Part shown: one piece after another, positions 38,207 to 63,811 of the stretch
Layout of the letters: every line of letters starts with the position of its first letter
Numbering within the stretch: the first letter of the stretch is position 1
Assembly: GCA_031441465.1 (NCBI GenBank)
Contig: JANOEP010000027.1
Coordinates: 13,572 to 77,571, forward strand
Length of the DNA stretch: 64,000 nt
Direction: 5' to 3'
From: a bacterium
GTDB lineage: Bacteria > Krumholzibacteriota > Krumholzibacteriia > LZORAL124-64-63
Notes under the pieces: model-generated
Seen by the model: only the letters and a program-made list of their open reading frames with translations
Databases searched by the model: none
What the model was told of the DNA's origin: nothing
Made by a program: the position numbers and the translations under genes

Positions 38207-38289
38207 GGCGCTCCCTCGAAAAAAAACATGGGCGGCCTGGAACCTCGGCCGCGGACCCTGCGTAGAATACAACATCGGATCGGACAAGC

Positions 38290-38346: not shown

Positions 38347-38508
38347 GAGTCATTCCCCAGAGGCGAGAGCAGAGCGAGTCAAGCGTGCAGCGGCGGGAGC
38401 GGGGCGACCCGCTCCCGCCGTTTTATGCCTCGTTCAGGAATCCCCCTTGGAGCAGCGCACCCGGATCGACTAAGATCGCCCCCGTCCCGAACCCTGAGGA
38501 GCGACGGC

Positions 38509-39591
<1,083 letters not shown>

Positions 39592-45699: not shown

Positions 45700-45710
45700 G
45701 GACATCCTCC

Positions 45711-48700
45711 TCATTTCACCAGGGTGAGCGTCCGGGTCGCGACCCGGCCGCCGTGAACGAGCTTGCAGACGTAGGTGCCGGCGGCCAACACGCGGCCGTC
45801 GAGGCCGACGCCGCGCCACGCCACCGCGTGGGAACCGGGGGCCAGCGGACCGTCGACCAGCACGGCCACGCGTTCCCCCTTCAGGTTGAAGACAGCCAGG
45901 TTGACGGGCGCCGCCTCGTCGCCGGGCAACTCGAAACGGATCTCGGTCCGGGGATTGAAGGGGTTGGGATAGGGCGGCGACAACGCCAGAACCGCCGGCG
46001 CCGGCGGGGTCGCGGTCGCCGACCAGGCGTCGGGCCGCCCGTCCCCGTCGTCGTCGACGGTGAAGGTCCAGACGGTGTCGATCGTCGGCAGGGCGGCCGC
46101 CGCGTTGCTGGGCGCCGAGTCGCCCCCGAGCACACCGCCGGGCTCGGGGTCCCAGCAGAGCGACGCCACCACCGAGAGCGTGGCGCCGGCGGGCACCCGC
46201 CCGGCGCCCAGCCCGAACAGGGTGTCCCAGGGAATGGCGAGCTCGCTGCCGCCGAGGTCGCCGTTCAAGTGCTGGGAATCGAAAGCCGAGACGATCTCGC
46301 CGGTGAGGTCGGCGGTCGTCGTCGGCGAGAGGATCCTCCAGAAGGAGTCGGAGTCCCAGACGGACTGGTGCTGGTAGCAGCCGTACTGGTAGTCGGCGCG
46401 GAAGCCGGGGGCCGTGAAGATCGCGCCGCGCTCCCAGACGTCGATCGCCGCGAGGTTGATCTGGCCCGCCGGCCCTCCGGGATCGGTGTCCAGGTACAGG
46501 AGCCAGGAGTTGCCGCTGACCCGGCCGTCGACGGCCAGGTAGAGGTAGGCGTCGTCCCAGCTGGCGTGCAGGCCGTCGATCTCGTTGCTGGAGGACCACG
46601 ACGAGTCGTTCGGGTCCGACAACTCCAGGTACCCGTCCCACTCGCCCGCCTCGAGGCGCCCGTCGACGGCCACCAGCGTCGGGGCGCGCACCGCGACCGT
46701 GACGTCGTCGGCCGCGGTCACCGGCGCGTTGCCGGCGCCGCCGGGGTCGCGCACCGAGTCCGCCGTCAGCAGCAGCCGCAGGTCGGCGGGGTCCAGGGCC
46801 GACAGCGCCGCGCCGTCGGCGGCGTCCAGCTGCAGGGTGAGCGCGTCGCCCGCGAGGGTCTCGACCACGGTGGTCGCGGCGCCCAACGTGAGTTCGGCCG
46901 TGCCGTCGGCGTCCGCGTCGATGCCGAATCCCGTCGGGTCCAGCGTGGCCGGGGCGGCCGCCTGGTCGAACGAGACCGCCAGCCGGCGCGACGTCGGGTA
47001 GTAGTCCGCCGCCACGGGCAGTGGGCCCAGGTCGTCGGTCAGGGTCGTCGCCAGCGCGCGCAACTCAGCGATCTCGCCGCCGGCGCCGGGCGCGCTCGTC
47101 ACGCCGGCGAACAGCCGCACCGCGAAGGCTCCCGCACCCTTGATCTCGTCGCCCTTCATGAGCGTGCCCGCGAACTCGCCCTGATGGGACGCGCCGGCCG
47201 TGCCCAGCACCCAGGCCGCCGTCACGCCGGTCCAGGGGTTGCGCTGGCCCATGTAGGCGGCGTCGGCGACCCAGACCCGGTCCATCTGCGCGTTCCAGAT
47301 CAGATCGACCAGGGACGGCGAAAAGCCGCTGCGGATCCAGTGGGTGCCCGCACCCACGCGGTAGACGGCCTCCAGGAAGCTGTCGCCCTCGGTCAGGCTG
47401 ATCTCCTTGGACGTCTCCCCGCGCACCGCCCGCAGCGTCACCGTCGGGCCCGCGCCCTGGACGACCTGCAGGTCGTAGGTCTCGTGCTGGTGGTCCGGGC
47501 TCACGTCGCTGAAGGCGCCGACGTGGTTGGCGTCGTTGTAGTCGGCCTCGCCGTTCCACGAGGCGTTGTCGCAGCCGATGGCCGTGTCGCCGAGACCCGG
47601 CCCCTTGACGAAGAGGTTGACCAGGCGGCCGCCGGCGGCTTCGAAGACCGCGAACAGGTGGTCGTTGTGCAGGACGACCTCGTCGTGGCCGTCGTTGTCG
47701 AGGTCGACCGCGTAGGCGGCCGTCGTCTGGAGGTACAGGCCCGCGGCCCAGCGCGAGGCCTCGGCGTAGATCATCGCCTGCTTCACGTGCGCGGAGTAGT
47801 TGTGCTCCCAGCCGGGGATCGGCCCCACGAGGCCCTCGTGCCAGGCCGTCTCGTAGAGGTTGGTCATCAGCACGTACCAGCCGGCCTGCGAGATGTGGTT
47901 GTCCGGAGCGGCCATCAGCGCGTTGTAGGCGTCGTTCCACAGGGCGCCGTAGTTCTTGCAGTTGCCGCCCGCGCCGGCGCAGGCGCCGCCGCCGTCGCCG
48001 CCGTTGGCCCAGGGCACCCAGCCGGCCCAGTGGCCGTACCAACCGTTGTCGCCGCCGCCGTAGCCGCCGGTGCCGCCGATCTCGTTGTAGGTGCCGGGCA
48101 CGGGCGAGAAGGTGTCGCCGTTGAAGTTCGGGTTGCTCAGGGCGTCGGCCAGCTTCCAGGTGGCGAGCCAGGCGCTCTCCTGGCTGCACTTGTTGACGAA
48201 CCAGTCGTAGGTCTCCTTGGCGTTCGGGGTGGCCGAGGCCCAGCCGCCCATCTCGGCGATCGCCTCCCAGTCCTCGCCCGCGGTCGCGAGGCGGTACTCG
48301 CCGACACCCGACGCTGCCAGACCCGCCAGGATGTCCAGGGAACCCTGGCCGTTGCCGCCAACGATGTTGCCGGTGAAGCTGCGGTCGCGCGGAATCAGGC
48401 GCAGGCCGTTGGCCGCCAGGAAGTGGATCCGGTGGTTGTCGTGGCCCTGCAGGTGGACGTCGTCGTCCAGGATGACGCCCCAGACGCCGTGCGGCTGGAA
48501 ATCGTCGCCGAGCCAGTCGTTGACGCCGCTGGACGGGTAGCCCGAGGTGTTGAGCCAGACGCGCTCGGGGATCCAGGCGACGCGCGGCTCGTAGCCGTAG
48601 CGCGTGGCGACCATGTCGGTCTCGATCGAGACCGCCCAGTCGTTCATCTCGTCGCGGACGAAGGGCATGATGTGCTGCGCGTAGGCGGAGGTGAGCATGC

Positions 48701-49484
48701 CGGCCCAGCCCGCGGCTGCGCCGTCGGCGAGCCAGGCGTTGAAGTCCTGCGGGTCGCCGCTGTTGTGGGCCCACTCGGCGGCGGTCTGCAGCGGGCCCGA
48801 GAGGTGGAAGTTGCCGGGCACGCCGGTCGCCTGGTGCACCTGGAGCGCCTCGTCGAAACCGCTGCCCTCGAGGTCGGCGCTGCGGCCGTGGAAGACGTCG
48901 CTGTAGCCGAGGCCCTGGTTGCCGTGCAGCACCAGGGCGCAGTTGGCGGCGTAGAGCTTGTCGGGAGGATCGTGGACGACGACCTCCTCGCCCGCCAGGG
49001 TGCTGACCGTCATCGTCAAGGGGCCCGCCGCGAGGTCCGCCGGCAGGTCCAGCCAGACCGCGTCGGGATCGCCCGCCCGCCTGCCGGCCCCCGCCGCGAC
49101 GTAGGCACCGCCGGAGATTTCGAGCCGATCCTCGAACAGGACCCTCGCCGCGGCGCCGGCGGTGGCGACGGTCACCTTCAACGGCACGGCGGCGGGGCCC
49201 GCTGTCAGTTCGCTGCCGGGGAACAGACCCGCCGGGCGCGCTTCGAGGCTGAGGAAGCTGATGCGCAGCCGGTCGACGCCGTCGCCGCGGTGCCGCGTCA
49301 CCGCCAGCACGTCGGCGCAGGGAGGCAGGCCGGGCAAGTGCCCCACGCCGTCGACACCCAGGACGGTCACCGTTCCCACCGGAGCGGGAGCCCCGGCGGC
49401 CCGGGCGGAGCCGGTCGCCAGGACGCTCGCGGTCCCGATCACCAGGATTCCGACCGTCAACCGGCCTCGGAACAAGCGGCGCAT
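45711..49484 (-). CDS. Secreted divergent GH57-family enzyme with accessory domains and a FlgD-Ig/T9SS-like CTD
   Basis: Signal peptide; LHGNQ, NFHLSGPL, WIPERVW, ILDD, EDWE, YETAWH; DLDNDGHDEVVLHND start of a DUF1926-like domain; C-terminal YPNPFNP. Confidence 0.75.
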   Translation of the reverse strand: MRRLFRGRLTVGILVIGTASVLATGSARAAGAPAPVGTVTVLGVDGVGHLPGLPPCADVLAVTRHRGDGVDRLRISFLSLEARPAGLFPGSELTAGPAAVPLKVTVATAGAAARVLFEDRLEISGGAYVAAGAGRRAGDPDAVWLDLPADLAAGPLTMTVSTLAGEEVVVHDPPDKLYAANCALVLHGNQGLGYSDVFHGRSADLEGSGFDEALQVHQATGVPGNFHLSGPLQTAAEWAHNSGDPQDFNAWLADGAAAGWAGMLTSAYAQHIMPFVRDEMNDWAVSIETDMVATRYGYEPRVAWIPERVWLNTSGYPSSGVNDWLGDDFQPHGVWGVILDDDVHLQGHDNHRIHFLAANGLRLIPRDRSFTGNIVGGNGQGSLDILAGLAASGVGEYRLATAGEDWEAIAEMGGWASATPNAKETYDWFVNKCSQESAWLATWKLADALSNPNFNGDTFSPVPGTYNEIGGTGGYGGGDNGWYGHWAGWVPWANGGDGGGACAGAGGNCKNYGALWNDAYNALMAAPDNHISQAGWYVLMTNLYETAWHEGLVGPIPGWEHNYSAHVKQAMIYAEASRWAAGLYLQTTAAYAVDLDNDGHDEVVLHNDHLFAVFEAAGGRLVNLFVKGPGLGDTAIGCDNASWNGEADYNDANHVGAFSDVSPDHQHETYDLQVVQGAGPTVTLRAVRGETSKEISLTEGDSFLEAVYRVGAGTHWIRSGFSPSLVDLIWNAQMDRVWVADAAYMGQRNPWTGVTAAWVLGTAGASHQGEFAGTLMKGDEIKGAGAFAVRLFAGVTSAPGAGGEIAELRALATTLTDDLGPLPVAADYYPTSRRLAVSFDQAAAPATLDPTGFGIDADADGTAELTLGAATTVVETLAGDALTLQLDAADGAALSALDPADLRLLLTADSVRDPGGAGNAPVTAADDVTVAVRAPTLVAVDGRLEAGEWDGYLELSDPNDSSWSSSNEIDGLHASWDDAYLYLAVDGRVSGNSWLLYLDTDPGGPAGQINLAAIDVWERGAIFTAPGFRADYQYGCYQHQSVWDSDSFWRILSPTTTADLTGEIVSAFDSQHLNGDLGGSELAIPWDTLFGLGAGRVPAGATLSVVASLCWDPEPGGVLGGDSAPSNAAAALPTIDTVWTFTVDDDGDGRPDAWSATATPPAPAVLALSPPYPNPFNPRTEIRFELPGDEAAPVNLAVFNLKGERVAVLVDGPLAPGSHAVAWRGVGLDGRVLAAGTYVCKLVHGGRVATRTLTLVK

Positions 49485-49589
49485 GGCATCCCCCCGGGCG
49501 TCGGCTGCACCGGCGCCCGCCACGATCCACGTCAAAAAGGGCGCGTCGGGTCGTTTCGGGGCCGCCCGGCACGCAGGATTCCATAGGAG

Positions 49590-49619
49590 ATTGTATCAAA
49601 TCTTGTGGGGGTATTGCAA
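49590..49619 (-). promoter_or_regulatory. Putative sigma70 promoter for the secreted GH57 operon
   Basis: Minus strand TTGCAA-N18-TACAAT with an extended -10 TG. Confidence 0.55.
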
Positions 49620-49644
49620 GTGGCATCGGCCGGCGCGGAGCGGA

Positions 49645-50487
49645 TCAGCCCTTCACGCCGCCCAGGGTGAGGCCGGAGATCAGGTACCGGCTGAGCAGCA
49701 GGAACAGGACCACGACCGGGATGCAGACCAGGACCGAACCGGCGGCGTAGTTGGCCCACTCGGTCTGGTAGGTGGAGGCCAGCGACTCGAGACCCAGCGG
49801 CAGGGTGTGCAGTTCGGCGCTCGGCAACATGACGCGGGCCACGATGAACTCGCTCCAGCCGGTCATGAAGGAGAACAGCGCGGTGATCACCAGGGCCGGC
49901 GCGCTCAGCGGCAGCGTGACGCGGCGGAAGGCCTCGAAGCGGCTGGCGCCGTCGATCAGCGCCGCCTCCTCGAGGTCGACGGGGATCGTGTCGTAGTAGC
50001 CCTTCATGGTCCACACGCAGAACGGGAGCGCCGTGGCCACGTAGGCGATCACCACCCCGATCAGGGTGTCCACCAGCTGGACCTTGCGCATGATCATGTA
50101 GAGGGGCAGCAGGAGCATCGTCGCGGGGAACATCTGCGTCACGAGGATCCCCTGCAGGGCGGCGCCGCGCCCGCGGAAGCGCGACCGCGAAAAAGCGTAG
50201 CCCGCCAGGCTGGCCAGCGAGACGCCGATCAGCGCCGTGCTCACCGACACCAGCAGGCTGTTGCGCAGCCAGGTCGGGAACGGCTTGTCGAAGAGGATGG
50301 CGCGGTAGGCCGCCAGCGTCGCGCCCTGCGGGATCAGCCGCAGGTCCGTGGTGTAGAGCTGGTCGCCGGGCCGCAGCGAGATGTTGACGACCTGCAGGAT
50401 CGGGTAGACCGAGAACAGCACGAACAACCACACCAGCGCGTGCACCCACACGTGGCTCCAGAGACGGGCCGCCGGACGCGCACGCAT
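49645..50487 (-). CDS. malG: Maltose/maltodextrin ABC transporter permease (MalG-like)
   Basis: AGYAFSRSRFRG, QMFP, KGYYDTIP, EAA loop LEEAALIDGA, WSEF, GLTLGGVKG. Confidence 0.9.
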   Translation of the reverse strand: MRARPAARLWSHVWVHALVWLFVLFSVYPILQVVNISLRPGDQLYTTDLRLIPQGATLAAYRAILFDKPFPTWLRNSLLVSVSTALIGVSLASLAGYAFSRSRFRGRGAALQGILVTQMFPATMLLLPLYMIMRKVQLVDTLIGVVIAYVATALPFCVWTMKGYYDTIPVDLEEAALIDGASRFEAFRRVTLPLSAPALVITALFSFMTGWSEFIVARVMLPSAELHTLPLGLESLASTYQTEWANYAAGSVLVCIPVVVLFLLLSRYLISGLTLGGVKG

Positions 50488-51386
50488 CAGAATGCCTCCC
50501 GGTCGGCGGCGCGCTGGTAGATCTTCACGATCCCGAACAGGGTCAGGAAGATGAAGACCGAGAAGGCGGCCGCGTAGCCGTAGCGGTAGTAGGTGAAGGC
50601 GGCCTTGTAGACGTAGGTCACCAGGATGTGGCTCTTGTCGCCGGGCTCGCCCTGCTTGGTGACCAGCCAGATCACGTTGAGGTTGTTGAAGGTCCAGATC
50701 GTGCCCAGCACGATCGCGGGCGTCAGCACCGGCCTGAGCATCGGCAGGGTGATCGCGGTGAAGCGGCGCCAGGCGCCGGCCCCGTCGATGCGGGCCGCCT
50801 CGTAGAGTTCTTCGGGGATGCTCTGCAGGCCGCCCAGGGCCACGACCATGATGAACGGGAAGCCGAGCCAGATGTTCGTGATCGTCGCGGCGGCGAAGGC
50901 CGTCCACTCGCCGCTCAGCCAGCCCACCGCCCCGAGCCCCAGCTTGCCCAGCAGCAGGTTCACCGAACCGTACTCCAGGTTGAACATGCCGCGCCAGGTC
51001 AGGGCTGAGATGTACTGCGGCATGGCCCAGGGCAGGATCAGCAGGGCGCGGTACAGCGGCCGGCCCGGCAAGCGGCGGTTCAGCAGCAGTGCCGCGCCCA
51101 CCCCGAGGGTCACGTGGAAGACGAGGTTGACACCCGTCCACAGGAACGTCCTGAGAAAGACGCGCAGGAATTCCGGCTCGCGCACGAGCTTGGCGTAGTT
51201 GGTCAGTCCGTTGAACGCCGGGTCGCGGAAGTGGAACATGTTCCAGTTGGTGAACGACATCCCGACGTTGTAGAAGAACGGGTACGCCACGACCAGCAGC
51301 AGCACCGCGGCGGTGGGCGCCAGGAACCAGAGAGCCATCCGGCCGCCCCGGGATTCGAGGTCCACGCGTCGGCGCCCACCGTTCAT
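50487..51386 (-). CDS. malF: Maltose/maltodextrin ABC transporter permease (MalF-like)
   Basis: YRALLILPWAMP, NIWLGFPF, LQSIPEELYEAARIDGA, FNNLNVI. Confidence 0.9.
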   Translation of the reverse strand: MNGGRRRVDLESRGGRMALWFLAPTAAVLLLVVAYPFFYNVGMSFTNWNMFHFRDPAFNGLTNYAKLVREPEFLRVFLRTFLWTGVNLVFHVTLGVGAALLLNRRLPGRPLYRALLILPWAMPQYISALTWRGMFNLEYGSVNLLLGKLGLGAVGWLSGEWTAFAAATITNIWLGFPFIMVVALGGLQSIPEELYEAARIDGAGAWRRFTAITLPMLRPVLTPAIVLGTIWTFNNLNVIWLVTKQGEPGDKSHILVTYVYKAAFTYYRYGYAAAFSVFIFLTLFGIVKIYQRAADREAF

Positions 51387-52636
51387 TCCCGCATCTCCGC
51401 GATCAGGCGCACGGCCCGCTCCTGCATGCGGGCGGCGGCCGCCTCCGGCGTCAGCTCGCCGCTGAGGCAGGCCTGGTAGGCGGGGCGCATGGCGTCCCAG
51501 ATGGCCCGCATCTCGCTGACGATGGGCATGATGCGCCCGTGGTCGACCTGGCGACGCGAGGCGGCCAGCAGCGGGTCGGCCACGAGTTGGGGGTCGGCGC
51601 GCACTTCGATGTCGCCGGGCAACACCGCCAGTTCGCGCGCCAGATCCGTCTGCACCTCGGGCGAGGTCAACCAGCGCAGCAGAGCCAGGGTGGCCGGCAG
51701 GCTCTTGGGGTGCGTGTAGCGGTTCACCGAGTAGCACTTGGCCGCGGTCATCGGCGAGGGCCACAGCCCGGTGGCGGGGATACGCGGCAGCAGGCCCAGT
51801 TCGATGTCCACGCCGGCCTGCCGGTAGCCGTCCCACGACCAGGGTCCGTTGACGATGTAGGCGGCGCGCCCCTCCTTGAACAACGTGTCGGCCAGCTGGT
51901 AGTCGCACTCGCGCGGCATCACGCCGGCTTCCACTAGGCCCTTGAGGAAGGTCAGGGCGTCGATCATGCCCTGGGAGTCGAGGGTCGGGTTCGCCTGCGC
52001 GTCCATCACCCAGCCGCCGAAGCCGCCCAACCACGGCACCAGGAAGAAGGGCTCGATGCGGTCGAAGACCACGCCGTAGATCTCGGGCTTGCCGTCGCCG
52101 TCGCGGTCGACGGTGAGCCGGCGCAGCTGCGCGACCCAGGCGTCGGCGTCCTCCGGGATCGCGTCCACGTGCGCGCGGTTGGCCACCAGGGTGAGGTGGT
52201 TGCCGACCTGGTCGGGCAGGCCCCAGACGTGCCCCTCGAGGGTCGGCAGGCCGGAGGGGTCGAAGCGCGCCAGCACCTCGGGCGGCAGCAGCTCGTCCAG
52301 CGGCAGGATCAGGTCCATGATCACGAAGGGACCGACCTGGTCCGAGGGGCCGTAGACCAGGTTGGGTCCGCCCATGGCCATGGCTGCGGTCTGGAACTGG
52401 GTGCGCAGGTCCTCGGTGTTGTAGTTGGCGCGGGAGATGCGGATGTCGGCGTACTCGGGGTGGGCGGCCTGGAACTCGCCGATGTGCCGCTCGAGCAGGG
52501 TGCGCTCGCGGGGATCCATCTGCTCCCAGATGACGACCTGGTCGGCGCGGTCGACCCGACCGCAGCCGCCGGCGGTCGCCAGCAGCGACAGGCAGGCGAC
52601 GAACGGCGCAATGCGGTGGGGGCACGGGCGGTTCAT
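51383..52636 (-). CDS. malE: Maltose/maltodextrin-binding lipoprotein (MalE-like solute-binding protein)
   Basis: Lipobox AGG-C; GPSDQVG, FKEGRAAYIVNGPWS, IMPIVSEMRAIW. Confidence 0.85.
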   Translation of the reverse strand: MNRPCPHRIAPFVACLSLLATAGGCGRVDRADQVVIWEQMDPRERTLLERHIGEFQAAHPEYADIRISRANYNTEDLRTQFQTAAMAMGGPNLVYGPSDQVGPFVIMDLILPLDELLPPEVLARFDPSGLPTLEGHVWGLPDQVGNHLTLVANRAHVDAIPEDADAWVAQLRRLTVDRDGDGKPEIYGVVFDRIEPFFLVPWLGGFGGWVMDAQANPTLDSQGMIDALTFLKGLVEAGVMPRECDYQLADTLFKEGRAAYIVNGPWSWDGYRQAGVDIELGLLPRIPATGLWPSPMTAAKCYSVNRYTHPKSLPATLALLRWLTSPEVQTDLARELAVLPGDIEVRADPQLVADPLLAASRRQVDHGRIMPIVSEMRAIWDAMRPAYQACLSGELTPEAAAARMQERAVRLIAEMRE

Positions 52637-55700: not shown

Positions 55701-58700
55701 AGAACGAGCCCGCAGACCACAACAGCTTCGACACGATCGACCTGACCGCCGTCGTGCTGGACAACACGCCCGACACGTTGCTGCTGGAGATCCCCTTCAC
55801 CACCGACTGGGCCGGCGTCCAGCTGCACGTGCTGCTGGAGACCAACGCCGACGCGGGCGGCGCCGCGAGCGACCCCTTCGTCATGCCCGTCAACTACGGC
55901 CACGCGCTGCGGCCCGACTACGCCCTGACCTCGAAGTATTCCGCCAACGACTACGGCGACTTCCGCAAGGCGTCCGGCGCGGGCTGGCAGTTCTGGAGCA
56001 CCGCGACGGCGACCTTCGAAGACTCCCCCGGCACGAACAACATCCAGGACAGCTGGGTCGAGATCACGGCCGACGCGGTCCGCATCGCCATCCCGTTCGC
56101 GGCCCTCGGGGGCGCGCCCGATTCGCTGCGCTGCGAGGTCTACGCCACGCAGGAGGACGGGGGCCAGAAGCGCTCGGCCTTCGACTCGGTCCCGCCCGAC
56201 GCCACCCTCGACCTGGACTTCGACTACCTCGACCCGCAGACGGGCGACTGGGAGTCGACGGTGCTGCCGACCACGCTCGCCAACTGGGGCCGCACCTACC
56301 GGATCAAGACCGACTTCCCGACGCCGCCGGCGGTGACCGAAGCCGCCGCCGCGCCCGTCGAACTGACGGCCGGCACGCCCTACGTCCTGACCGCCCGGGT
56401 CCTGGACGCGGGCGACGGCGTCGGCGACGTGCTGGCCGACCTCTCGTCGACGGCGGGCGCCGCGCTGGCGCGGATGCACGACGACGGCGAGACGGCCCAC
56501 GGCGACGCCTTCGCGGGCGACGGCGTCTTCAGCCTGCGCGCGTTGGTGCCCCTGGGCAGCCCCGGCGGCGAGCAACCGCTGGTGGTCCTGGCCTACGACG
56601 CCGCCAACCGCGTCGCCGCGCGCGACACGGCGCTGGTGCAGGTCGCCGCGCAGGTCGAGATCCTCCGCAGCACCACCGACGCCGAGGGCGACGACCACGG
56701 CCCGAACCAGCCGAGCGAGGCCCTCAAGTACTACACCTACCCGACCAACGCCGTCTTCGTGCCGAACGCCTTCGACCTGCGCTCGCTGAACGTGTACGAG
56801 ACCACGGCCGTGGTGGCCGGCCGGCCGGTCGTCATGCTGGCCTTCGAGATCGGCGTCGGCGACTTCCCCAACCCCGCCGATCCCGGCATGGCCGACTGGA
56901 ACCCCACCTACGGCGAGATGAACATCCAGAAACTGGACCTGCTGATCGACAGCGCGCCGGGCGGGGCGACCACCGGCCTGCCCAACCGCCGCCTGGACCT
57001 GCAGCCCTGGAACGCCTGGGAGTACGCCGTGATCATGGACGGCTGGTACAAGGCGCTGGTCCCTTCGTTGGGCCTGAACTCGCTGGACGCCTGGCGCGAG
57101 AACGCCCTGCGCAACGACGTCGACATGCAGTTCTCCGGGGACTTCGACCGCAACACGATCACCGCCCTGGTCTCCAAGGCGGCCCTGGGCAACCCGACCG
57201 CCGACGACGTGCGCAACTGGAACATCGCCGTGCTGATCTCGAGCCACGACTTCGGCGGCGAAGAGGTCCTGGGCGGCGTGCGCTGGGTCAACGAGGCGCG
57301 CAGCGAGTGGAACTTCGGCGGCGGCCACTACACCGACCGCGACGCCAACGTCATGGATCTGCTGCTCTCTCCGGGCGCCGGCCGCAGCGCCGGCCTGCCC
57401 CAGGAGCAGATCCTGGACTACGACCGGCCCGAAGCGCGCGACCGCCTGGCGCAGGGCCTGGCCGCCTGCGCCCTGGAGATCTCCGCTTTCGAGGACACCG
57501 GCCCGCCGGTGATCCGCATCGTCAAGGACTACGGTGAGGTCGTGCGCCGCACGCCGCTGCGCGACGCGCCGATCGCCTTCACCCTGGAGATCAGCGACGA
57601 CTACGCCGTCGACCACGCAACCTTCCGCTACCGGCCCAGCAGCGCCGCCGGCGCCTGGTCGGCGGAATCGCCCATGGGCTACGTGGGCAACGACCTCTGG
57701 AGCGTCGACATCCCCGCCGCGTGGCTGGACGAGAACCTGGTGCGCTCCCCCGTCGACGGCACGCGCTACCTGGAGTTCCAGGTCGAGGCCGTCGACGCCA
57801 GCGCCGAGCACAAGACCACCGTCTCGCCGGTGACCACCATGCAGATCGAGGAGACGGCCGAGAGCCTGCGACTGACCGCAGCCATGGTTGCGGGCGAAGT
57901 GCGGCTGCGCCAAGTGGAGGGCTCGACGCTGGTCCTGGACGACGCCCTGCGCGGCCGGCTGGTCGAGTACTACCGCGACTGGACAGGCTCGACCCTGACG
58001 GCCGACAGCCTGGCGATCGTGCTGGAACTCGGTTGGGATCTGCGCCGGGTCCCGGACAGCGTGCGCAGCGCCCCCGCCGCCACGGACGCCCGTCCACTGG
58101 GGGTGACCCGCGAGGTGCGGCTGGACCTCGCCGCGACGTCGAGTCGCCTGGTGCCGCTCGATGACCGCCTCCCGGGTCCACTGTCGCTCACGCTGCACTA
58201 CATGCAGTCGGACCTGCCGCCCGGCGCCGACGAGGACCAGGTCGCGGTCTTCGAGTACCACGCCGCGGCGAACCGCTGGGTCCTGGTCGGCGGCAACGTC
58301 AATCCCGACGGCAACGAGGTCACCATCAACACCGACCACGCCGGGACCTACGGCCTGTTCTGGGCCCGCGACCTCGGCTACGACACGGGTGAGGTCGTCT
58401 CCGGCGTCACGATCTCGCCGAACCCGTTCTCCCCCAACGGCGACGGGCTCTACGACCAGACCACGATCAGCTTCTACCTCGACCGCGAGGCTTCGATCAC
58501 GCTCGAGGTCTACAACATCGACGGCAAGCTCAAGGCGCGGCTGCAGGAGACCGTCTCCTACACCGGCGACGACGACGCCCAGGGCCGACCTCGCCGCATC
58601 GCCGGCTTGATCTGGGACGGCACCGACGGGAACGGCGACCTCGTCCCTTACGGCGTGTACGTGCTGCGCCTGCTGGCCACCTACCAGGTGGGCGGCGGCA

Positions 58701-58744
58701 ACCGCACGATCGGCAGCAACCATCCCGTGGCGGTGATCCGATGA
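52766..58744 (+). CDS. 1992-aa secreted/surface multidomain protein (DOMON/CBM9-like, carboxypeptidase-regulatory-like and Big/invasin Ig repeats, glucodextranase-C-like DOMON, PNPFSPNGDG-type CTD)
   Basis: Signal peptide; TATAAT upstream at 52710; AQLYDSAGN and AQLVDAYGN Ig motifs; MHDDGETAHGDAFAGDGVF; DAEGDDHGP...YTYPTNAVF...FDL; C-terminal ISPNPFSPNGDG...WDGTDGNG...GVY. Confidence 0.8.
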   Translation: MRASQLLRTRAALAALLVLLGAAGAAAEPFHTPTVNGLIAGDGVDWETPDRVLDDFDDDGNQRSGNTRHLWLTWDQNNLYLGLNYQALDRTVVVYLDAGLGTGPTDASLLDQFPRALVLPAGRHIDLLLAQHHTGFTNLGTLQAWRVTDATGALTEITTSTQNAQTYGVDNTFPGASIFWFRNEIAIPWSVVYPDGPPAHAVLRAAVAVTPGADGAGADDLMPGLGRLEGVAGPIRIAQMHASILDQDGDGEVDPLDAGASGTVTLQQDPGNAAITATATLTDWSGAPLGGPIAAVRTAAGAHDYRLGRLAAGTYTLQFSAPGYFPNTIEVTVAAGQELTGANVTLEKATTITGTLALELAGSRGGFVFRAPDGAVLAEQPLLLPNQFPYHFTFYVQESGDYELEAFAANHLRRTFTIPVVAGVDVANLVLQLPRAPLIAGAASFASGPGAAGTVTIGNAAGDTVLATTVIGPGATAFSYYAPRLGALTLRATAGTYAPVVLNVNVVAGQDLNGLALPLHRLPQLAGSIGFADGPGHAGRLILSGGAADPDTLDFPADGGTFAEGSGELAPFFVPAGSYLLTAEADGYVPQTRELAVADAPDQTVDAGVFSLLAVRADRLRLLDDQGLPTVSVSATVSVPADGFYSYAPLRLEAVDAAGRRDLFDLDAKLADLPLTARKLDDVSPPSGAARFLASEDFADVVTTASADSGLIRLWIADDAVEVLRLYVGPDVPDHLKQGPESPTARFMVGFNDPRPAVVVLAAERDTLRTDGQDAVLVSAQLYDSAGNASLLPDIAVTFSVAPSSTGEGAFTVPTVTTNADGFAVAELTATGTGVLQIDASVSIDGAVLEVRTGGPDGPVGRLPVTVIPGVTVSWRIAAAAGTAGIALPATIVAQLVDAYGNPTADAGVPLTFVAAPATLGSFTVPATQSGADGRATAVFQPAGLAGVVTLDAVSSAYPVEPVLLQLRDVAVETDPDWQNEPADHNSFDTIDLTAVVLDNTPDTLLLEIPFTTDWAGVQLHVLLETNADAGGAASDPFVMPVNYGHALRPDYALTSKYSANDYGDFRKASGAGWQFWSTATATFEDSPGTNNIQDSWVEITADAVRIAIPFAALGGAPDSLRCEVYATQEDGGQKRSAFDSVPPDATLDLDFDYLDPQTGDWESTVLPTTLANWGRTYRIKTDFPTPPAVTEAAAAPVELTAGTPYVLTARVLDAGDGVGDVLADLSSTAGAALARMHDDGETAHGDAFAGDGVFSLRALVPLGSPGGEQPLVVLAYDAANRVAARDTALVQVAAQVEILRSTTDAEGDDHGPNQPSEALKYYTYPTNAVFVPNAFDLRSLNVYETTAVVAGRPVVMLAFEIGVGDFPNPADPGMADWNPTYGEMNIQKLDLLIDSAPGGATTGLPNRRLDLQPWNAWEYAVIMDGWYKALVPSLGLNSLDAWRENALRNDVDMQFSGDFDRNTITALVSKAALGNPTADDVRNWNIAVLISSHDFGGEEVLGGVRWVNEARSEWNFGGGHYTDRDANVMDLLLSPGAGRSAGLPQEQILDYDRPEARDRLAQGLAACALEISAFEDTGPPVIRIVKDYGEVVRRTPLRDAPIAFTLEISDDYAVDHATFRYRPSSAAGAWSAESPMGYVGNDLWSVDIPAAWLDENLVRSPVDGTRYLEFQVEAVDASAEHKTTVSPVTTMQIEETAESLRLTAAMVAGEVRLRQVEGSTLVLDDALRGRLVEYYRDWTGSTLTADSLAIVLELGWDLRRVPDSVRSAPAATDARPLGVTREVRLDLAATSSRLVPLDDRLPGPLSLTLHYMQSDLPPGADEDQVAVFEYHAAANRWVLVGGNVNPDGNEVTINTDHAGTYGLFWARDLGYDTGEVVSGVTISPNPFSPNGDGLYDQTTISFYLDREASITLEVYNIDGKLKARLQETVSYTGDDDAQGRPRRIAGLIWDGTDGNGDLVPYGVYVLRLLATYQVGGGNRTIGSNHPVAVIR

Positions 58745-59622
58745 CAAGAACCACGACGAGGCGGGTCCTGCTCGCCCTCCTGCTGGTGCTCGGCGCCGCC
58801 CAGTCGGCCCGGGCCGACTTCCGCCACGCCCGTCTGGGTGCGCGGCCGCGGGCCCTGGGCTCGGCCTTCACGGCGTTGAGCGACGACCCCAACGCCGTGT
58901 TCTGGAACCCCGCCGGCCTGTCGCGCGACGACCGGCTCTCGCTCACGCTCAGCCGGGCCTGGCAATACTCGGCGGAAGGCCTGGGCACCGACGACCTGAT
59001 CGTGACCTCGCCCGACCTGTGCGGTCTGCGGGTGGGCCTGGGCGTCATCCGCGTAGGCATCGAGGACCTGCTGTACGAGGACACCTACGCCCTGGCCGGC
59101 GCCGTGCGCGCACCGTGGCTGGAGGGGCTCTCGCTCGGGGTGACGGGCAAGGTCTTCCGCCTGGAGGCGCCCGGCTACGAGAGCTACGGCGACCCCGCCT
59201 ACAACGGCGGCGACATGGGCTTCGCCGTGGACCTGGGCTTCCTCTACGACAGCGGCCGGGCCTGGACCCTGGGCGGCGTGGTGCAGAACCTGAACGAGCC
59301 CTACCTGCAGCTGCTGGAGACGACCGTGGACCCCGATCCGGTGTTCAGCACCTTCGCCGTGGGCGGCAGCTACCTCTTCCGCGAGACACTGCGGGTCAGC
59401 GGCGACGTGCGCAGCCGCGAGGGCGGCTTCGGCGACACGACGCTGCACGGCGGCGCCGAGATCTGGTTCTTCGACGCGCTGGCCCTGCGGGCCGGCCTCG
59501 CCGCCGGCCAGGTCACGATGGGCTTCGGCCTGCAGGACGTGCGCTGGCAGCTCGACGTGGCCCTGGAATCCTTCGAACGCGTCGGCAACGTGTACATGCT
59601 CTCTTTCACGGTGAGGGACTGA
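58741..59622 (+). CDS. PorV/PorQ (FadL-like) outer-membrane beta-barrel, T9SS shuttle-like
   Basis: ATGA overlap with the giant gene; signal peptide followed by GARPRALGSAFTALSDDPNAVFWNPAGL; GFAVDLGFLY; LALRAG. Confidence 0.8.
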   Translation: MTRTTTRRVLLALLLVLGAAQSARADFRHARLGARPRALGSAFTALSDDPNAVFWNPAGLSRDDRLSLTLSRAWQYSAEGLGTDDLIVTSPDLCGLRVGLGVIRVGIEDLLYEDTYALAGAVRAPWLEGLSLGVTGKVFRLEAPGYESYGDPAYNGGDMGFAVDLGFLYDSGRAWTLGGVVQNLNEPYLQLLETTVDPDPVFSTFAVGGSYLFRETLRVSGDVRSREGGFGDTTLHGGAEIWFFDALALRAGLAAGQVTMGFGLQDVRWQLDVALESFERVGNVYMLSFTVRD

Positions 59623-59623
59623 C

Positions 59624-61234
59624 GTGAAGTCTAGCTGGCGACGCAGTGCGCTCCTGCTGCTGACCGCGGCCCTGACGGCCGGCTCCGCGGCGACCGCCGC
59701 GGCGGCGACGAAGCTCGAGGGGTACTACTCGATCTGGTCCGCCGCCGACCGCACCGACCGCAACTGGCATTTCGGGATGCCCTCCCACTACGCGGAGCTG
59801 AAGTTCCTCAACAACGCCAGCGAGGGCGTCGAGAGCTTCGTCAAGCTGCGCGTCAACGCCAACAGCGACGACGACCGCACCTCGTTCGTCGAGTACTACA
59901 CGCCGCCCTGGATCGCGGCGGAGGGGCACATCAAGTTCCGCAGCAAGGCCACCGAGACGATCCTGTTCTCGCGCCAGAACCACTTCTGGATCAACGACGA
60001 GCCCCTGTTCAACCTCGTCAGCGACGGCAAGCTGAAGAACGACAGCTACGGTCCGCAGTCCCAGGGCGTGCGCTTCGAGCTTTTCAACCACCGGCTGCCC
60101 GGGCTGGGCACGTGGGGCGCCGTCGCCATCTACAGCGACGACGGCGGCACCCACAACTGGGGGCAGGGCGACGTGCGCGACGGCGTCGACTCCTGGATCG
60201 TGCGCGTGCGCAACCGCTCCTGGGGCGACCGCCTGGTGGGCGGCCTGATGTTCCTGCGCAAGGACTGGACCGACACCGGTGCGCCGCTGGCCACGTCGCG
60301 GCTCGGCCTGATGAACAACCAGGTCTACGAAGCCGACCTGGCCTTCTTCCCCCACGACCTGGTCGCCGACGGTCTGCACCTCGGCCCGCTGGACCTGGAA
60401 CAGTCGCGCTGGACACTCGAATACGCGCTGAGCCGCGTGCCCTACCAGGAGCACATCAGCGGCCACCCCACCGATTTGAACCGCCTCTTCGGCGCCGAGG
60501 TGCGCGACATCCACGTCGGCAACCTCATCCTGCACGGCTGGTACCACGACGCCGGCGAGAACTTCCGCGACTTCCTCTCCGGGCGCTGGGACGACGAGCG
60601 CAAGTACAACCGGATCACCCAGCACGCCGAGGGCATCTTCTTCGTGCCCCGCAAGGCGATCACCGCCAAGGTCGCCTACGACAAGGAGCGGCTGCGGGTC
60701 CCGGACGAGATCGGCTTCGGGCTGCGCCCGTCCGAGACCTGGTACGGCGAGGTCTACGTCGAGTTCATCAAGGGGTTCAAGGGCAAGACCATCTACAAGC
60801 GCTGGCACGGCTTCGACGCCGATTCCGACGTCAACGCCTACGCCACCTACCCCGACCTGTTCGCCGAGCTGTCGGTCGAGAACTTCCTGGCGAAGATCCG
60901 CCTGCAGTTCCGCCTGCACGACTTCGACACCTTCCGCGAGTCGAGCGCCTACGGCTTCGACATGAACGTCAACATCACCGACAAGGTGAAGGGCTACCTG
61001 CGCATGCTCGACGCCCGCGACAGCGTCGAATCGCGCCAGACGGCCTTCGCCCAGCTGAAGTACGACCTCGGCTACGGCGCCGAGTTCTACTTCGAGTACG
61101 GCGACCCCGGCCAGTCCGACAACATCGTCTGGACGGACTGGTTCATCGGCTTCGTGGATCCGGACGCCAGCCGCACGCCCAACAGCCGGTTGTTCAAGGA
61201 CCGCCTGGCGATGTCCTTCCGGACCTGGTTCTGA
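59624..61234 (+). CDS. Outer-membrane beta-barrel protein (putative porin)
   Basis: Signal peptide, aromatic-rich amphipathic strands, C-terminal LAMSFRTWF (terminal Phe, BAM beta-signal-like). Confidence 0.7.
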   Translation: MKSSWRRSALLLLTAALTAGSAATAAAATKLEGYYSIWSAADRTDRNWHFGMPSHYAELKFLNNASEGVESFVKLRVNANSDDDRTSFVEYYTPPWIAAEGHIKFRSKATETILFSRQNHFWINDEPLFNLVSDGKLKNDSYGPQSQGVRFELFNHRLPGLGTWGAVAIYSDDGGTHNWGQGDVRDGVDSWIVRVRNRSWGDRLVGGLMFLRKDWTDTGAPLATSRLGLMNNQVYEADLAFFPHDLVADGLHLGPLDLEQSRWTLEYALSRVPYQEHISGHPTDLNRLFGAEVRDIHVGNLILHGWYHDAGENFRDFLSGRWDDERKYNRITQHAEGIFFVPRKAITAKVAYDKERLRVPDEIGFGLRPSETWYGEVYVEFIKGFKGKTIYKRWHGFDADSDVNAYATYPDLFAELSVENFLAKIRLQFRLHDFDTFRESSAYGFDMNVNITDKVKGYLRMLDARDSVESRQTAFAQLKYDLGYGAEFYFEYGDPGQSDNIVWTDWFIGFVDPDASRTPNSRLFKDRLAMSFRTWF

Positions 61235-61305
61235 CCGACGCCGCGCGGCCCGCGGGCCGCCTGTCCCCGCCGGCGCCGCCGGCGAGACCCGATAGGGAGC
61301 AAACG

Positions 61306-63354
61306 ATGCGCAAGCACGATCCGATCCTCCTGGCCGCCGCCCTGCTGCTCGGGACCCTGCTGCTCGCCGCTGCGCCGGCGGCCGCGGCCGTCAAGAGCGT
61401 GCCCGTCGGCGTGAAGTTCACCCACCAGGCGCCCGGCGCGGGCAAGGTGAACCTGGCCGGCTCGTTCAACGGCTGGGACGCCCAGCGCCATCCCCTGACC
61501 GACGAGGGCGGGGGCGTCTGGTCGATCGTGATGGCGCTCAAACCGGGCAAATACGACTACAAGTTCGTCGTGGACGGGGCCTGGTTCGCCGACGCGGAGA
61601 ACCCGGACTCCACACCGGACTCCTACGGCGGCACCAACTCGGCGATCCAGGTGGGCGACGACGGCAAGCTGGTCGCCGTGGCCGCCTCCGCGACGAAGGC
61701 GGCTCCCGCCACGACGCTCAACCCGAAGCTGACGTACAGCGGCCGCTACCTCGGGCGCTATCTGGCCTGGAAGGACCGCGACGGCGATCCCCGCTTCCGC
61801 ATGGAGCGCCCCGAGCAGAACGTCGATCTCAACTTCAACACCAAGGTGAGCGACGTCGTCGACGCCTACACCAGGCTGCGCCTGGACAACACGACCAACG
61901 TCGTGCTGAACAACATCCACGCCCAGCTCGACGAGGGCGCGATCGACGTCCACCCCGGCCCCTACCGGGTCCTGGGCTACTGGGACATGGAAACCCTGCA
62001 ACTGGGCGATCCGCTGAGCAGCGGCGGCGATGTCGATCTACCCGGCACGATCCTGGACGACCACCTCAAGGCGGGCAAGGGCACCGCCGGCGTCGTGGTC
62101 GCCGGCTCGCCCTTCGGCCTGATGTACGAGGGGTTCTTCGCCGACGTGCACGACGCGAACTACTACAACGACATCAACCTCTACGACAACACCGGCCGCG
62201 ACATCTTCGGCTCGCGCCTCTCCCACCAGGCGCTGGGCCTGACCTTCGGCGTGCCCTTGTACCTGCAGCGCGAGCTGGTCTGGGTCGAAATGACCAGCCT
62301 GCTGGGCCAGCCCGACGGTACCGGCATCGCGGCCCTGGACCGCTACCTGGACCTCACCGGCGACTCCAGCGACTGGTTCGAGCTGGACCGCTTCGACCTG
62401 CGCCTGGGCTTCGACCTCACCCGCGAGCTGTCGGACGGCCGCGGCCGCGCGCAGCTGGAGTGGTTGTACGCGGCGGCCGACGAGCGTTTCGTCACCGGCA
62501 GCCGCACCGGCTTCAACAACACCAACGGCCCGACCGACATCGACCTCTCCACGCGCGCCCGCCGCATCTGGCACGCCTCACTCGAGCAGACGCTGCGCCC
62601 GGGCCGCCGGGTGAACGTCGAGCACACCACCGTGACCGAGAGCGGCGCCCAGCCCGGCGAGGCTTCCACGAACTTCGTGTTCCTCGACCAGGCCAGCGCC
62701 AGCAATCGCGTCTACATCGCCTTCGGCCCGGCTCGGCCCGCAATGACGACCGAGTACACCGAGCTGACCTGGACCGAGGAGGCGGAGGACCGCAGCCACC
62801 TGCTGTGGGTGCAGCGCTACGCCGTTGCGGCGGACTACGCCGCGGCCGGCCTCGCGGCCCCTGACGGCGGGACGACCGCCGACGCGACGATCTGGTCGGT
62901 GGCGACCCGCCATGTCCTAGGCACTCCCGGCGACCGCTACGGGCACTGGGACCTCGAGGGCGCCTGGTCGGACCTGAACGACCACGTGACTCCCGCCCAC
63001 GGCCACAGCCTGGAGTGGATCCTGCGGGCCGACCGGCAGGTCTCGCGCCGCATGCACGCCTTGTTGAACCTGCGCTGGATCGGCTACCGGCTCGACGGCC
63101 TCGCGGGCGGCGACGACGAGTTCTTCGCGCCCTGGCTCGGCCTGCAGTACCAGCCCAGCCCGCGCCTGGACGTGACCTTCTTCTACGGCGTGGACCCGCT
63201 GGACTTCGGCATCGACTACGACGGCCGCGAGGTCGGGCGCTGGCGGTACCGCCGGCAGTACGTCCTGGACCACGCGGGCACGACGGAACTGGACGCCGAG
63301 CAGTCGCTCGCCGACGTCCAGGCCCTGGGCATCCGCGCCAACATGCGCTTCTAG
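61306..63354 (+). CDS. CBM48 (AMPK-beta-like glycogen-binding domain) fused to an outer-membrane beta-barrel
   Basis: Signal peptide; VNLAGSFNGW...GVWSIVMALKPGKYDYKFVVDGAWFADAENP...YGGTNS; Ala-rich linker; barrel ending GIRANMRF. Confidence 0.8.
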   Translation: MRKHDPILLAAALLLGTLLLAAAPAAAAVKSVPVGVKFTHQAPGAGKVNLAGSFNGWDAQRHPLTDEGGGVWSIVMALKPGKYDYKFVVDGAWFADAENPDSTPDSYGGTNSAIQVGDDGKLVAVAASATKAAPATTLNPKLTYSGRYLGRYLAWKDRDGDPRFRMERPEQNVDLNFNTKVSDVVDAYTRLRLDNTTNVVLNNIHAQLDEGAIDVHPGPYRVLGYWDMETLQLGDPLSSGGDVDLPGTILDDHLKAGKGTAGVVVAGSPFGLMYEGFFADVHDANYYNDINLYDNTGRDIFGSRLSHQALGLTFGVPLYLQRELVWVEMTSLLGQPDGTGIAALDRYLDLTGDSSDWFELDRFDLRLGFDLTRELSDGRGRAQLEWLYAAADERFVTGSRTGFNNTNGPTDIDLSTRARRIWHASLEQTLRPGRRVNVEHTTVTESGAQPGEASTNFVFLDQASASNRVYIAFGPARPAMTTEYTELTWTEEAEDRSHLLWVQRYAVAADYAAAGLAAPDGGTTADATIWSVATRHVLGTPGDRYGHWDLEGAWSDLNDHVTPAHGHSLEWILRADRQVSRRMHALLNLRWIGYRLDGLAGGDDEFFAPWLGLQYQPSPRLDVTFFYGVDPLDFGIDYDGREVGRWRYRRQYVLDHAGTTELDAEQSLADVQALGIRANMRF

Positions 63355-63367
63355 GAACGGGAGAGTG

Positions 63368-63811
63368 ATGAGCAAGCACCGACGTCCGCGACCGCTGCGC
63401 CCGACCGTCCTGCGCCCGATGATCCTGGGCTTGGCCGCCCTGCTGCTGCTCGGCGGCTGCGGCTACATGCGCGTGATCCGCACCCGCGTCCCGCCGCCGA
63501 AGCGCCTGGACGACGGCCTGGTCCGTTTCTTTTACGAGGCGCCCCAGGCCAAGCACGTGAACCTGTGCGGCAACTGGGACGAGAACGACTGGTGCAGCAC
63601 CCGCGGCACCGGCCGCTTCGACCACGAGATCGGCGCCATGCACGACGACGACGGCGACGGCATCTGGGAGATCCAGATCCACCTCGAACCCGGCCGCTAC
63701 GAGTACAAGTACGCCGTCGACTGGGGCATGCGCTGGGAGCAGGATCCCAGCAACCCGACGGGGCGGGACGACGGGTTCGGTGGGCAGAACTCCATCCTCA
63801 TCCTCAAGTAG
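63368..63811 (+). CDS. Small lipoprotein with a CBM48-like glycogen-binding domain
   Basis: Lipobox LGG-C; VRFFYEAPQAKHVNLCGNW...DGDGIWEI...LEPGRYEYKY...DPSNP...DGFGGQNS. Confidence 0.85.
   Translation: MSKHRRPRPLRPTVLRPMILGLAALLLLGGCGYMRVIRTRVPPPKRLDDGLVRFFYEAPQAKHVNLCGNWDENDWCSTRGTGRFDHEIGAMHDDDGDGIWEIQIHLEPGRYEYKYAVDWGMRWEQDPSNPTGRDDGFGGQNSILILK

Follow-up and report, generated by a model that had tools for sequence, protein, structure and literature searches.

A conserved five-gene cassette with predicted outer-membrane barrels and CBM48 domains: a candidate TonB-independent module for alpha-glucan capture and uptake

Results

A five-gene cassette at an alpha-glucan locus

The window analysed here comprises 64,000 nucleotides of contig JANOEP010000027.1 (assembly GCA_031441465.1) from a Krumholzibacteriota bacterium, has a G+C content of about 70% and ends where the 77.5-kb contig ends. 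Five co-directional, closely packed genes occupy positions 52766-63811 of its plus strand and are examined as a candidate outer-membrane module for the uptake of alpha-glucans. In order, they encode a surface protein with a type IX secretion system (T9SS) tail (P0005), a PorV/PorP-like outer-membrane barrel (P0004), two large predicted barrels here called barrel A (P0002) and barrel B (P0001), the second of which carries an N-terminal carbohydrate-binding module of family 48 (CBM48), and a small CBM48 lipoprotein (P0003). Coordinates are collected in Table 1. The start of P0004 overlaps the stop of P0005 by 4 nucleotides; the spacing is then 1 nucleotide between P0004 and barrel A, 71 nucleotides between the two barrels and 10 nucleotides between barrel B and the lipoprotein gene, for which homologues point to the ATG at 63368 as start rather than the GTG at 63365. 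A promoter and terminator scan gave nothing exceeding shuffled sequence.

A barrel A profile scan of species-representative genomes yielded 79 loci, in which synteny was tallied by domain coordinates, only where the contig leaves room. In 76/76 loci a CBM48 comes right after barrel A, singly in 52 and as two copies in 24; barrel B is found after barrel A in 72/74 and the CBM48 lipoprotein after barrel B in 63/64. Upstream, a PorV-like gene directly precedes barrel A in 72 of 73 loci and is itself preceded by a gene for a T9SS-tailed protein in 64 of 65. Where the pattern breaks, the locus is truncated (L044), is divergent (L082) or has a gap that is slightly larger (L073). The 79 loci are labelled Krumholzibacteriota, Latescibacterota, Eisenbacteria and Cloacimonadota, with single metagenome-assembled genomes (MAGs) labelled Elusimicrobia and Spirochaetes and some evident mislabels. 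Judged by this shared gene order, the five genes are a conserved unit across several phyla. A first-pass annotation, made from the DNA letters, had treated the two barrels and the lipoprotein as a trio; these three do belong together, but the unit is wider, adding the T9SS-tailed protein and the PorV/PorP-like barrel.

The families of both large barrels have more than 100 database relatives each, with E-values down to 0, and are therefore not chance open reading frame patterns. Relatives of A and B share contigs in MAGs labelled Krumholzibacteriota/-ia and Latescibacteria, some labels being doubtful (e.g., Gemmatimonas sp. or bacterium). Barrel A is rare: a search of 1.84 billion proteins turned up only 110 representatives at E<=0.001. 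Two longer relatives are P0271, with a CsgG-like N-terminal piece, and P0313, without a Pfam match; neither shows a carbohydrate-binding module (CBM). A further apparent relative, P0352, was discarded as a spurious Ig-repeat match.

Two predicted barrels outside described families

Barrel B begins with a signal peptide (cleavage between AAA and AV, judged by eye), followed by the CBM48, an Ala-rich linker and a beta-rich part of 543 amino acids that ends in ANMRF. Barrel A likewise has a signal peptide, ends in RTWF and is devoid of a CBM. Neither barrel A nor the barrel part of B matched any Pfam, NCBIfam or PDB sequence family; for barrel A, Pfam and NCBIfam gave no match at E<=0.1 and PDB sequences 0 matches at E<=1. 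In particular, Pfam at E<=0.1 returned no LamB (PF02264), Plug (PF07715), PF00593 or usher match for either protein.

AlphaFold2 models were generated from family alignments of 57 (barrel B) and 58 (barrel A) sequences. Barrel A is modelled as an all-beta barrel with a mean predicted local distance difference test score (pLDDT) of 87.9 and a predicted template modelling score (pTM) of 0.79; barrel B is likewise an all-beta barrel (mean pLDDT 88.3, pTM 0.76) with its CBM48 at 81-89. Parsed from secondary-structure strings, not coordinates, barrel A has about 24 strands and barrel B 22-24. In both, short turns of 2-8 residues alternate with long loops, the exception being turn T5 of barrel A with 20 residues, so that both termini of A and B would lie on the short-turn (periplasmic) side.

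Foldseek and exhaustive structural searches returned generic 18-26-strand barrels of unrelated families. For barrel A, the best matches are the ushers FimD (Z 16.3; 366 residues aligned, root-mean-square deviation (rmsd) 5.7) and PapC (Z 16.1), followed at near-tied scores by Occ porins, VDAC/Tom40, TonB-dependent receptors and MtrB. For barrel B, they are maltoporin (Z 15.6; residues 142-575 only, 301 residues, rmsd 6.5), FimD (15.1) and then MtrB and several TonB-dependent receptors (Z 14.2-14.6). Barrels of TonB-dependent transporters align with A and B at Z 12-14.6 (BtuB: 366 residues, rmsd 4.4), tied with ushers, MtrB and porins. Because the scores tie among unrelated large barrels, no structural family can be named. 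Both models are confident, and the two proteins are predicted transmembrane-type barrels.

What the first-pass annotation had observed, namely an N-terminal CBM48, an Ala-rich linker and a Phe-ending barrel of about 550 amino acids, flanked by a second barrel without a CBM and by a lipoprotein that is essentially one CBM48, with neither barrel recognizable as LamB or as a TonB-dependent receptor, proved correct in every point. The AlphaFold and Foldseek check it had proposed agrees, as both proteins fold as predicted barrels and no characterized porin family stands out. Its interpretation is partly supported, as detailed below.

Barrels A and B are distant paralogues according to profile comparison: hhalign (run with -mact 0.1) aligned the two families over 420 columns with a probability of 95.5% and an E-value of 1.6e-8, using alignments of 72 and 66 sequences from several phyla, drawn from related loci. 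Common to both are a long first hairpin, a short penultimate strand and a long conserved last loop starting Y-G-x-D-P. Among the short segments of barrel A, conservation peaks at the turns 341-345 (VPxKA), 381-384 (FxxG) and 420-422 (NxL), and conserved charged and aromatic residues are numerous on its strands. Other candidate relationships, all language-model protein-atlas neighbours, were rejected or set aside. DUF6029 (PF19494) gave less than 1% probability when both barrel alignments were compared by hhalign with one of the DUF6029 proteins of the genome; Porin_4 and Tpr/MOSP were set aside as generic barrel look-alikes. The genome encodes three DUF6029 proteins on contigs C11, C43 and C64 (L089-L092), which are large predicted Phe-ending barrels unrelated in sequence to A and B.

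The generic nature of these fold matches would suit general large porins that lie in the locus by chance and in which the CBM48 fusion is incidental. We regard this explanation as very improbable, since a CBM48 follows barrel A in every locus with room for it, across several phyla, every full-length barrel B relative contains a CBM48 and the genes are single-copy in the genome.

CBM48 domains with conserved glycogen-binding residues

The CBM48 of barrel B (residues 35-118) scores above the Pfam cut-offs of both PF16561 (53.4 bits, cut-off 26.8) and PF02922 (49.5 bits, cut-off 22.4). Its best PDB sequence matches are SEX4 and AMPK beta, and its fold matches the N-domain of a Pyrococcus amylase (Z 13.9, rmsd 1.9, 90 residues). 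According to PMC6274970, mutation of W100, K126 or W133 in AMPK beta1 abolishes or weakens glycogen binding. These residues are aligned by W57, K86 and W93 of barrel B, invariant in 57/57 family members. The lipoprotein is matched at 1e-16 by a profile of the barrel B-family CBM48, and its residues W75, K114, W123 and N141 are invariant in 37/37 family sequences, the first three being the equivalents of the AMPK beta1 residues. On this alignment evidence, the CBM48 domains retain intact glycogen-binding residues.

In barrel B, the Ala-rich linker (residues 119-139, 15-20 amino acids) is modelled at a pLDDT of only 37-58. Across 70 loci, the stretch between CBM48 and barrel has a median length of 15 residues and terminates in a conserved N-T-x-L-N-x-K-V; most lengths fall within 10-21, and a single locus departs from this with 2. 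The lipoprotein has the lipobox LLGGC, which places its lipidated Cys at residue 32 (GTG start) or 31 (ATG start), followed by a basic peptide, C-x-x-x-x-[IV]-[IL]-[RK]-x-R-[LV]-P-x-P, that is kept from Krumholzibacteriota to Cloacimonadota. If the usual topology holds, both CBM48 parts would be tethered near the periplasmic face.

The number of CBM48 copies varies between lineages. Lipoproteins with two CBM48 (247-259 amino acids) occur in L068, L070 and L072, from Eisenbacteria-labelled and Effluviviaceae-labelled MAGs; in Krumholzibacteriia-type loci, two CBM48 sit on barrel B instead. In L068 and L070, the cassette lipoprotein is followed by a GH57 protein with a CBM48 on both sides.

Predicted plugging of barrel A by the lipoprotein

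Complex prediction covered one pair, mature barrel A and mature lipoprotein, with alignments for both. Three runs gave ipSAE (interaction prediction score from aligned errors) values of 0.00, 0.81 and 0.61 (median 0.61), with 0.00 for the best of 3 controls; the ipSAE mark used is reached by 116/157 solved complexes as opposed to 2/215 mismatched pairs. Partner pLDDT did not fall below 66. The best run has the lipoprotein contacting strands all round barrel A near its short-turn end as well as loop 117-138 and loop residues 500 and 503; strand and turn contacts are 32, 56-58, 74-76, 154, 198-205, 242, 262, 294-304, 338-349, 378-386, 413-424, 446-458 and 535. The contacted turns 340-347, 378-386 and 419-424 had been singled out as the most conserved short segments before the complex was run. 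Within the barrel A interface, 26 of 57 residues are at least 90% conserved, compared with 130 of 508 overall (hypergeometric p 4e-4). None of the lipoprotein's four sugar-binding residues is among the confidently predicted contacts; this absence does not show that they are free. Residues 36-40 of the basic peptide behind the lipidated Cys are in predicted contact with barrel A.

The predicted arrangement is that of a plug in a barrel: the lipoprotein CBM48 sits inside the periplasmic half of the barrel A lumen, touching the conserved short turns, and two long loops fold in from the other side to meet it. This model supports binding between lipoprotein and barrel A without showing it. The first-pass annotation had cast the lipoprotein as a lid or receptor. 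A position in the lumen of the CBM-less barrel A, on its short-turn side, would not be that of an outer lid of barrel B, which lay outside this prediction.

A T9SS surface protein and its putative anchor

The cassette opens with P0005, which consists of an N-terminal domain of about 230 amino acids, Ig-like domains, a Glucodextran_C domain (residues 1302-1555; Pfam 2.1e-25) and a C-terminal T9SS-type sorting domain, for which CHU_C, at 0.0039, is under the cut-off. In distant phyla, the first cassette gene encodes only about 370 amino acids, made up of the N-terminal domain of P0005 and a CHU_C/FlgD_ig-type T9SS tail above the cut-off, which means that the cassette does not depend on P0005 being so large. 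For these small surface proteins, PDB sequence matches are confined to the FlgD-like tail and do not extend to the N-terminal domain. The adjacent P0004 reaches 57.2 bits with NCBIfam PorV_fam (cut-off 90) and 29.6 bits with Pfam TraF_2 (cut-off 25), and a Cloacimonadota homologue reaches 21.3 with PorP_SprF (cut-off 22.3). An SprA_N match (43.5 bits, above cut-off) is present in the same genome. PorP-like proteins hold T9SS cargo with a CTD (C-terminal domain) of type B at the cell surface, as PMC9143113 describes. P0004 is likely the anchor or shuttle of P0005, and this pair is the only part of the module that instances a known kind.

The constancy of this pair also underlies the main rival explanation, in which the barrels do not transport anything. 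Together with the PorV/PorP-like protein they would form a platform that assembles or anchors the T9SS surface protein, the CBM48 domains would serve as structural plugs or assembly chaperones and glucans would enter through TonB-dependent receptors encoded elsewhere. Such a platform would fit a cassette that always opens with the T9SS-tailed protein and its PorV/PorP-like neighbour, the translational coupling of the first three genes (the 4-nucleotide overlap and 1-nucleotide gap), the holding of type B cargo by PorP-like proteins (PMC9143113, as cited above), a genome that encodes nine Plug-domain receptors as well as SprA, and a predicted CBM48 position that fills the lumen. However, a purely structural plug would have no need of the glycogen-binding residues that are invariant in both CBM48 families, conserved charged and aromatic residues abound on those strands of barrel A that face the lumen, and the 77.5-kb contig has no TonB-dependent receptor. 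We consider the platform unlikely overall, and the strongest of the competing accounts.

Alpha-glucan context of the cassette

By its domain content, the neighbourhood of the cassette is an alpha-glucan utilization locus with MalE, MalF/G, MalK, GH57 and amylo-alpha-1,6-glucosidase (GDE) genes (Table 1). Upstream on the opposite strand lie the genes for MalE, two permeases, two large T9SS-tailed proteins, GDE and GH57, and MalK is encoded upstream as well. Among the related loci of at least 15 kb, 30 of 36 contain Mal ATP-binding cassette (ABC) transporter parts and 25 of 36 a protein with at least three CBM48; the latter is found in 31 of all 79 loci and, where scanned, is an alpha-amylase of family GH13 that carries 3-5 CBM48 at its N-terminus and no T9SS tail. 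The copy in the genome itself, on contig C48 (loci L003-L007), is a GH13 enzyme with five tandem CBM48, an SPI-type signal and no lipobox, and is thus probably periplasmic. It adjoins a lipoprotein with CBM48 and GH13 domains. The genome, which is 96.8% complete, has 0 matches to LamB and SusD, and its nine Plug-domain proteins are all on other contigs. The link to glycogen or maltodextrins that the first-pass annotation had drawn is supported, as far as sequence goes, by this context and by the retained AMPK beta1-type residues. The gating of the channel and the handing of glucan to MalE, which it had also suggested, gained no support from the analysis.

Table 1 Features of the cassette and of the surrounding locus.
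Feature	Position in window	Strand	Description
P0005	52766..58744	+	1992 amino acids; secreted T9SS-tailed surface protein
P0004	58741..59622	+	293 amino acids; PorV/PorQ/PorP-like outer-membrane barrel
P0002 (barrel A)	59624..61234	+	536 amino acids; signal peptide, C-terminal Phe, no described family
P0001 (barrel B)	61306..63354	+	682 amino acids; signal peptide, CBM48 (nucleotides 61408-61659), short linker, barrel (nucleotides 61723-63351)
P0003	63365..63811	+	148 amino acids; lipoprotein with one CBM48
MalE-like solute-binding protein	51383..52636	-	SBP_bac_8 (Pfam) 9.1e-25; divergent from cassette
Two ABC permeases, MalF/G-like	49532..51400	-	BPD_transp_1 1.6e-16 in 50487-52625 frame; homologues in related loci
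T9SS-tailed protein	45711..49535	-	1274 amino acids; conserved domain without known family; part of locus, outside cassette
T9SS type A cargo	43324-46641	-	1105 amino acids; choice-of-anchor X and Big_5 domains
GDE_C, amylo-alpha-1,6-glucosidase	39609-41840	-	domain match
MalK	38425-39591	+	domain match
GH57	36494-38287	-	domain match

The two large T9SS-tailed proteins upstream have overlapping frames, which leaves the true start of the 43324-46641 gene uncertain. Residues ~188-839 of the 1274-residue protein matched no Pfam, NCBIfam or PDB sequence family and are strongly conserved in alpha-glucan loci of Cloacimonadota (E 7e-178 to 2e-166 in L075, L078 and L088), where a homologue bears two pullulanase X25 domains. 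The protein may be an enzyme or binder of alpha-glucans at the cell surface that has yet to be described.

A sensor histidine kinase gene next to the cassette and MalK in the MAG labelled Elusimicrobia (L076, 15031-17856) encodes two CBM48 ahead of the HAMP domain, which suggests periplasmic sensing of alpha-glucan chains. The module could by extension be an outer-membrane sensor in which glucan binding to CBM48 alters the barrel complex and signals alpha-glucan availability in the manner of trans-envelope signalling; a lipoprotein lodged in a barrel also recalls RcsF in OmpA/C/F. This kinase with two N-terminal CBM48 was however seen in one locus only, among the few loci scanned with Pfam. 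There is no regulator within the cassette, and it is enzymes and importers rather than regulators that are co-located with it, making a sensor quite unlikely in our view.

The same neighbours bear on the idea that the module exports or holds a cell-made alpha-glucan, such as a capsule or a surface glycogen-like polymer. The fold searches did return the exporter-type barrels AlgE (Z 13.4-13.7), Wzi (Z 11.7-13.0) and PelB (12.4), albeit tied with many others. The genes around the cassette are nonetheless importers and hydrolases (MalEFGK, GH13, GH57, GDE), and no glycosyltransferase or synthase was seen in the scanned flanks. We give export little credence.

Discussion

A proposed route for alpha-glucan chains

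We hypothesize that the cassette encodes a TonB-independent outer-membrane module for the capture and uptake of alpha-glucans (starch, glycogen and long maltodextrins) in candidate phyla related to the Fibrobacteres-Chlorobi-Bacteroidetes (FCB) group, a reading to which we assign somewhat better than even chances. The T9SS would secrete P0005, which P0004 would hold at the surface, where the polymer is captured. Glucan chains would then thread through barrel A, barrel B or both without TonB energy. The CBM48 parts, acting in trans on barrel A as the lipoprotein and in cis on barrel B as the N-terminal domain on its fixed short linker, would keep these wide barrels from being open holes and, as binding sites at the periplasmic exit, would bias chain movement inward. 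The five-CBM48 GH13 amylase with its signal peptide would cut the incoming chains and MalEFGK would import the cleavage products, so that binding, hydrolysis and ABC import together would pull chains inward.

Several points weigh against this proposal. Polymer passage as proposed is independent of TonB and has no evident energy source, and the nine TonB-dependent receptors encoded elsewhere in the genome could import glucans instead. Regarding the predicted complex, one of the three runs scored 0.00, the guaranteed contact agreement between runs is 0% and the calibration holds only roughly because our own alignments were used. The enrichment of conserved residues in the barrel A interface may arise because lumen-facing residues are conserved anyway, and the lipoprotein side has no such enrichment (11/38 residues in the interface vs 30/117 overall). 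Strand number, sidedness and pore occlusion come from a parse of secondary-structure strings and contact lists. Some family assignments are marginal: P0004 is under the curated PorV_fam cut-off, the CBM48 of the lipoprotein scores slightly under the two Pfam cut-offs (24.3 with a cut-off of 26.8 and 20.1 with a cut-off of 22.4) and narrower alignments of barrels A and B gave an hhalign probability of only 3%. With respect to distribution, barrel A was found in 73/201 sampled genomes of the phylum (53/125 of good quality) and is absent from most, Mal ABC genes occur in the flanks of only 41 of the 79 loci and the organisms carrying the module are all uncultured. Contigs from the RNA libraries of two studies match the operon at 90-97% identity, some of them spanning the A-to-B and B-to-lipoprotein junctions; they are relatives' contigs, possibly DNA-containing, and as no transcript is demonstrated they are no more than a hint.

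A bolder version of the proposed uptake module is that, next to SusCD and the specific porins, it represents a third, independent route of polysaccharide import. Such a translocon would be CBM-plugged and independent of TonB, with a CBM48 in the lumen of each of two paralogous 22-24-strand barrels (the lipoprotein in trans in A, the barrel's own N-terminal domain in cis in B), and, together with a T9SS-displayed capture protein, would reel long alpha-glucan chains into the periplasm, where the five-CBM48 amylase would receive them. We put this version forward tentatively and would expect it to fail more readily than to hold. The architecture may recur with different CBMs that serve different glycans.

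Comparison with known systems

In the literature searched, which leaves out most subscription journals, neither the five-gene cassette nor an outer-membrane barrel fused to CBM48 was found to be described. In the accessible portions of PMC11495043, PMC6851124 and PMC12590816, these phyla or CBM48 appear only within enzyme inventories. Little is known about how polymers cross the outer membrane outside Bacteroidota, especially in the uncultured FCB-related phyla that abound in sediments, sludge and aquifers; if our proposal is true, the module is a concrete candidate for the outer-membrane step of starch or glycogen use there, and alpha-glucan users would become recognizable in metagenomes that have neither SusCD nor LamB. 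Unusual features are a CBM that is either fused to a very large barrel or, as predicted, lodged within it, two barrels that stem from an old duplication and the coupling to a type IX-secreted surface protein. Independently of function, two protein families outside current domain libraries are defined here.

FimD and PapC ushers share 24-strand barrels and the best fold scores with barrel A. However, the module has no usher Pfam match, usher plug or usher N- and C-terminal domains, only the translocation barrel aligns and the scores lie within about 2 Z of unrelated barrels. Another described arrangement is that of T9SS type B CTD cargo with its PorP/SprF-like anchor (PMC9143113), an adjacent pairing repeated by P0005/P0004 and their small homologues. 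In contrast to that system, P0004 scores 57 against the PorV cut-off of 90, the CTD of P0005 is under the Pfam cut-offs and the pair forms part of a fixed cassette that also includes two other barrels.

In architecture, the nearest analogies are LptD/LptE, the cis plug of TonB-dependent transporters and the periplasmic extension of ScrY. LptD/LptE is an example of a very large barrel with a lipoprotein plug. Together with the cis plug, it illustrates how a large lumen can be filled either by a lipoprotein in trans, matching the predicted complex of barrel A and the lipoprotein, or by a barrel's own N-terminal domain in cis, which may be the arrangement in barrel B. No sequence relationship to these systems was found, the LptD fold match is generic (Z 10.6), the cargo differs and the plug of the module is a carbohydrate-binding module.

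The glycoporins LamB, ScrY and CymA would have in common with the module a TonB-independent passage of alpha-glucan oligomers that feeds a MalEFGK-type importer. The N-terminal periplasmic extension of ScrY has been proposed to extend its sugar slide, and the N-terminal peptide of CymA sits in the pore. Unlike these channels, the module barrels have no PF02264 match, are predicted to have about 22-24 strands rather than 14-18 and are combined with a whole folded CBM instead of relying on a greasy slide only; the maltoporin fold match covers part of barrel B only and is tied with ushers and TonB-dependent receptors.

In overall composition, the module resembles Sus (SusC/SusD, SusE/F/G) and Sus-like polysaccharide utilization loci, where a large barrel, one or more starch-binding lipoproteins, surface binders, an amylase and an inner-membrane importer likewise come together in an alpha-glucan locus and the barrel gene is followed by the lipoprotein gene. 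It differs from Sus in that its barrels lack a Plug domain, are not detectably related in sequence to TonB-dependent receptors and show no evident coupling to TonB, and in that the genome has no SusD. Its surface subunit carries a T9SS tail and has a PorV/PorP-like partner, and its lipoprotein is a CBM48 of 115 amino acids predicted inside the barrel, not a tetratricopeptide repeat (TPR) lid. The first-pass annotation had proposed that unrelated parts make up a functional analogue of SusCD/LamB, and all findings are consistent with that idea. On balance, the scales tip slightly towards a system for glycan uptake at the outer membrane whose protein families are undescribed and which resembles Sus or LamB in the logic of its locus.

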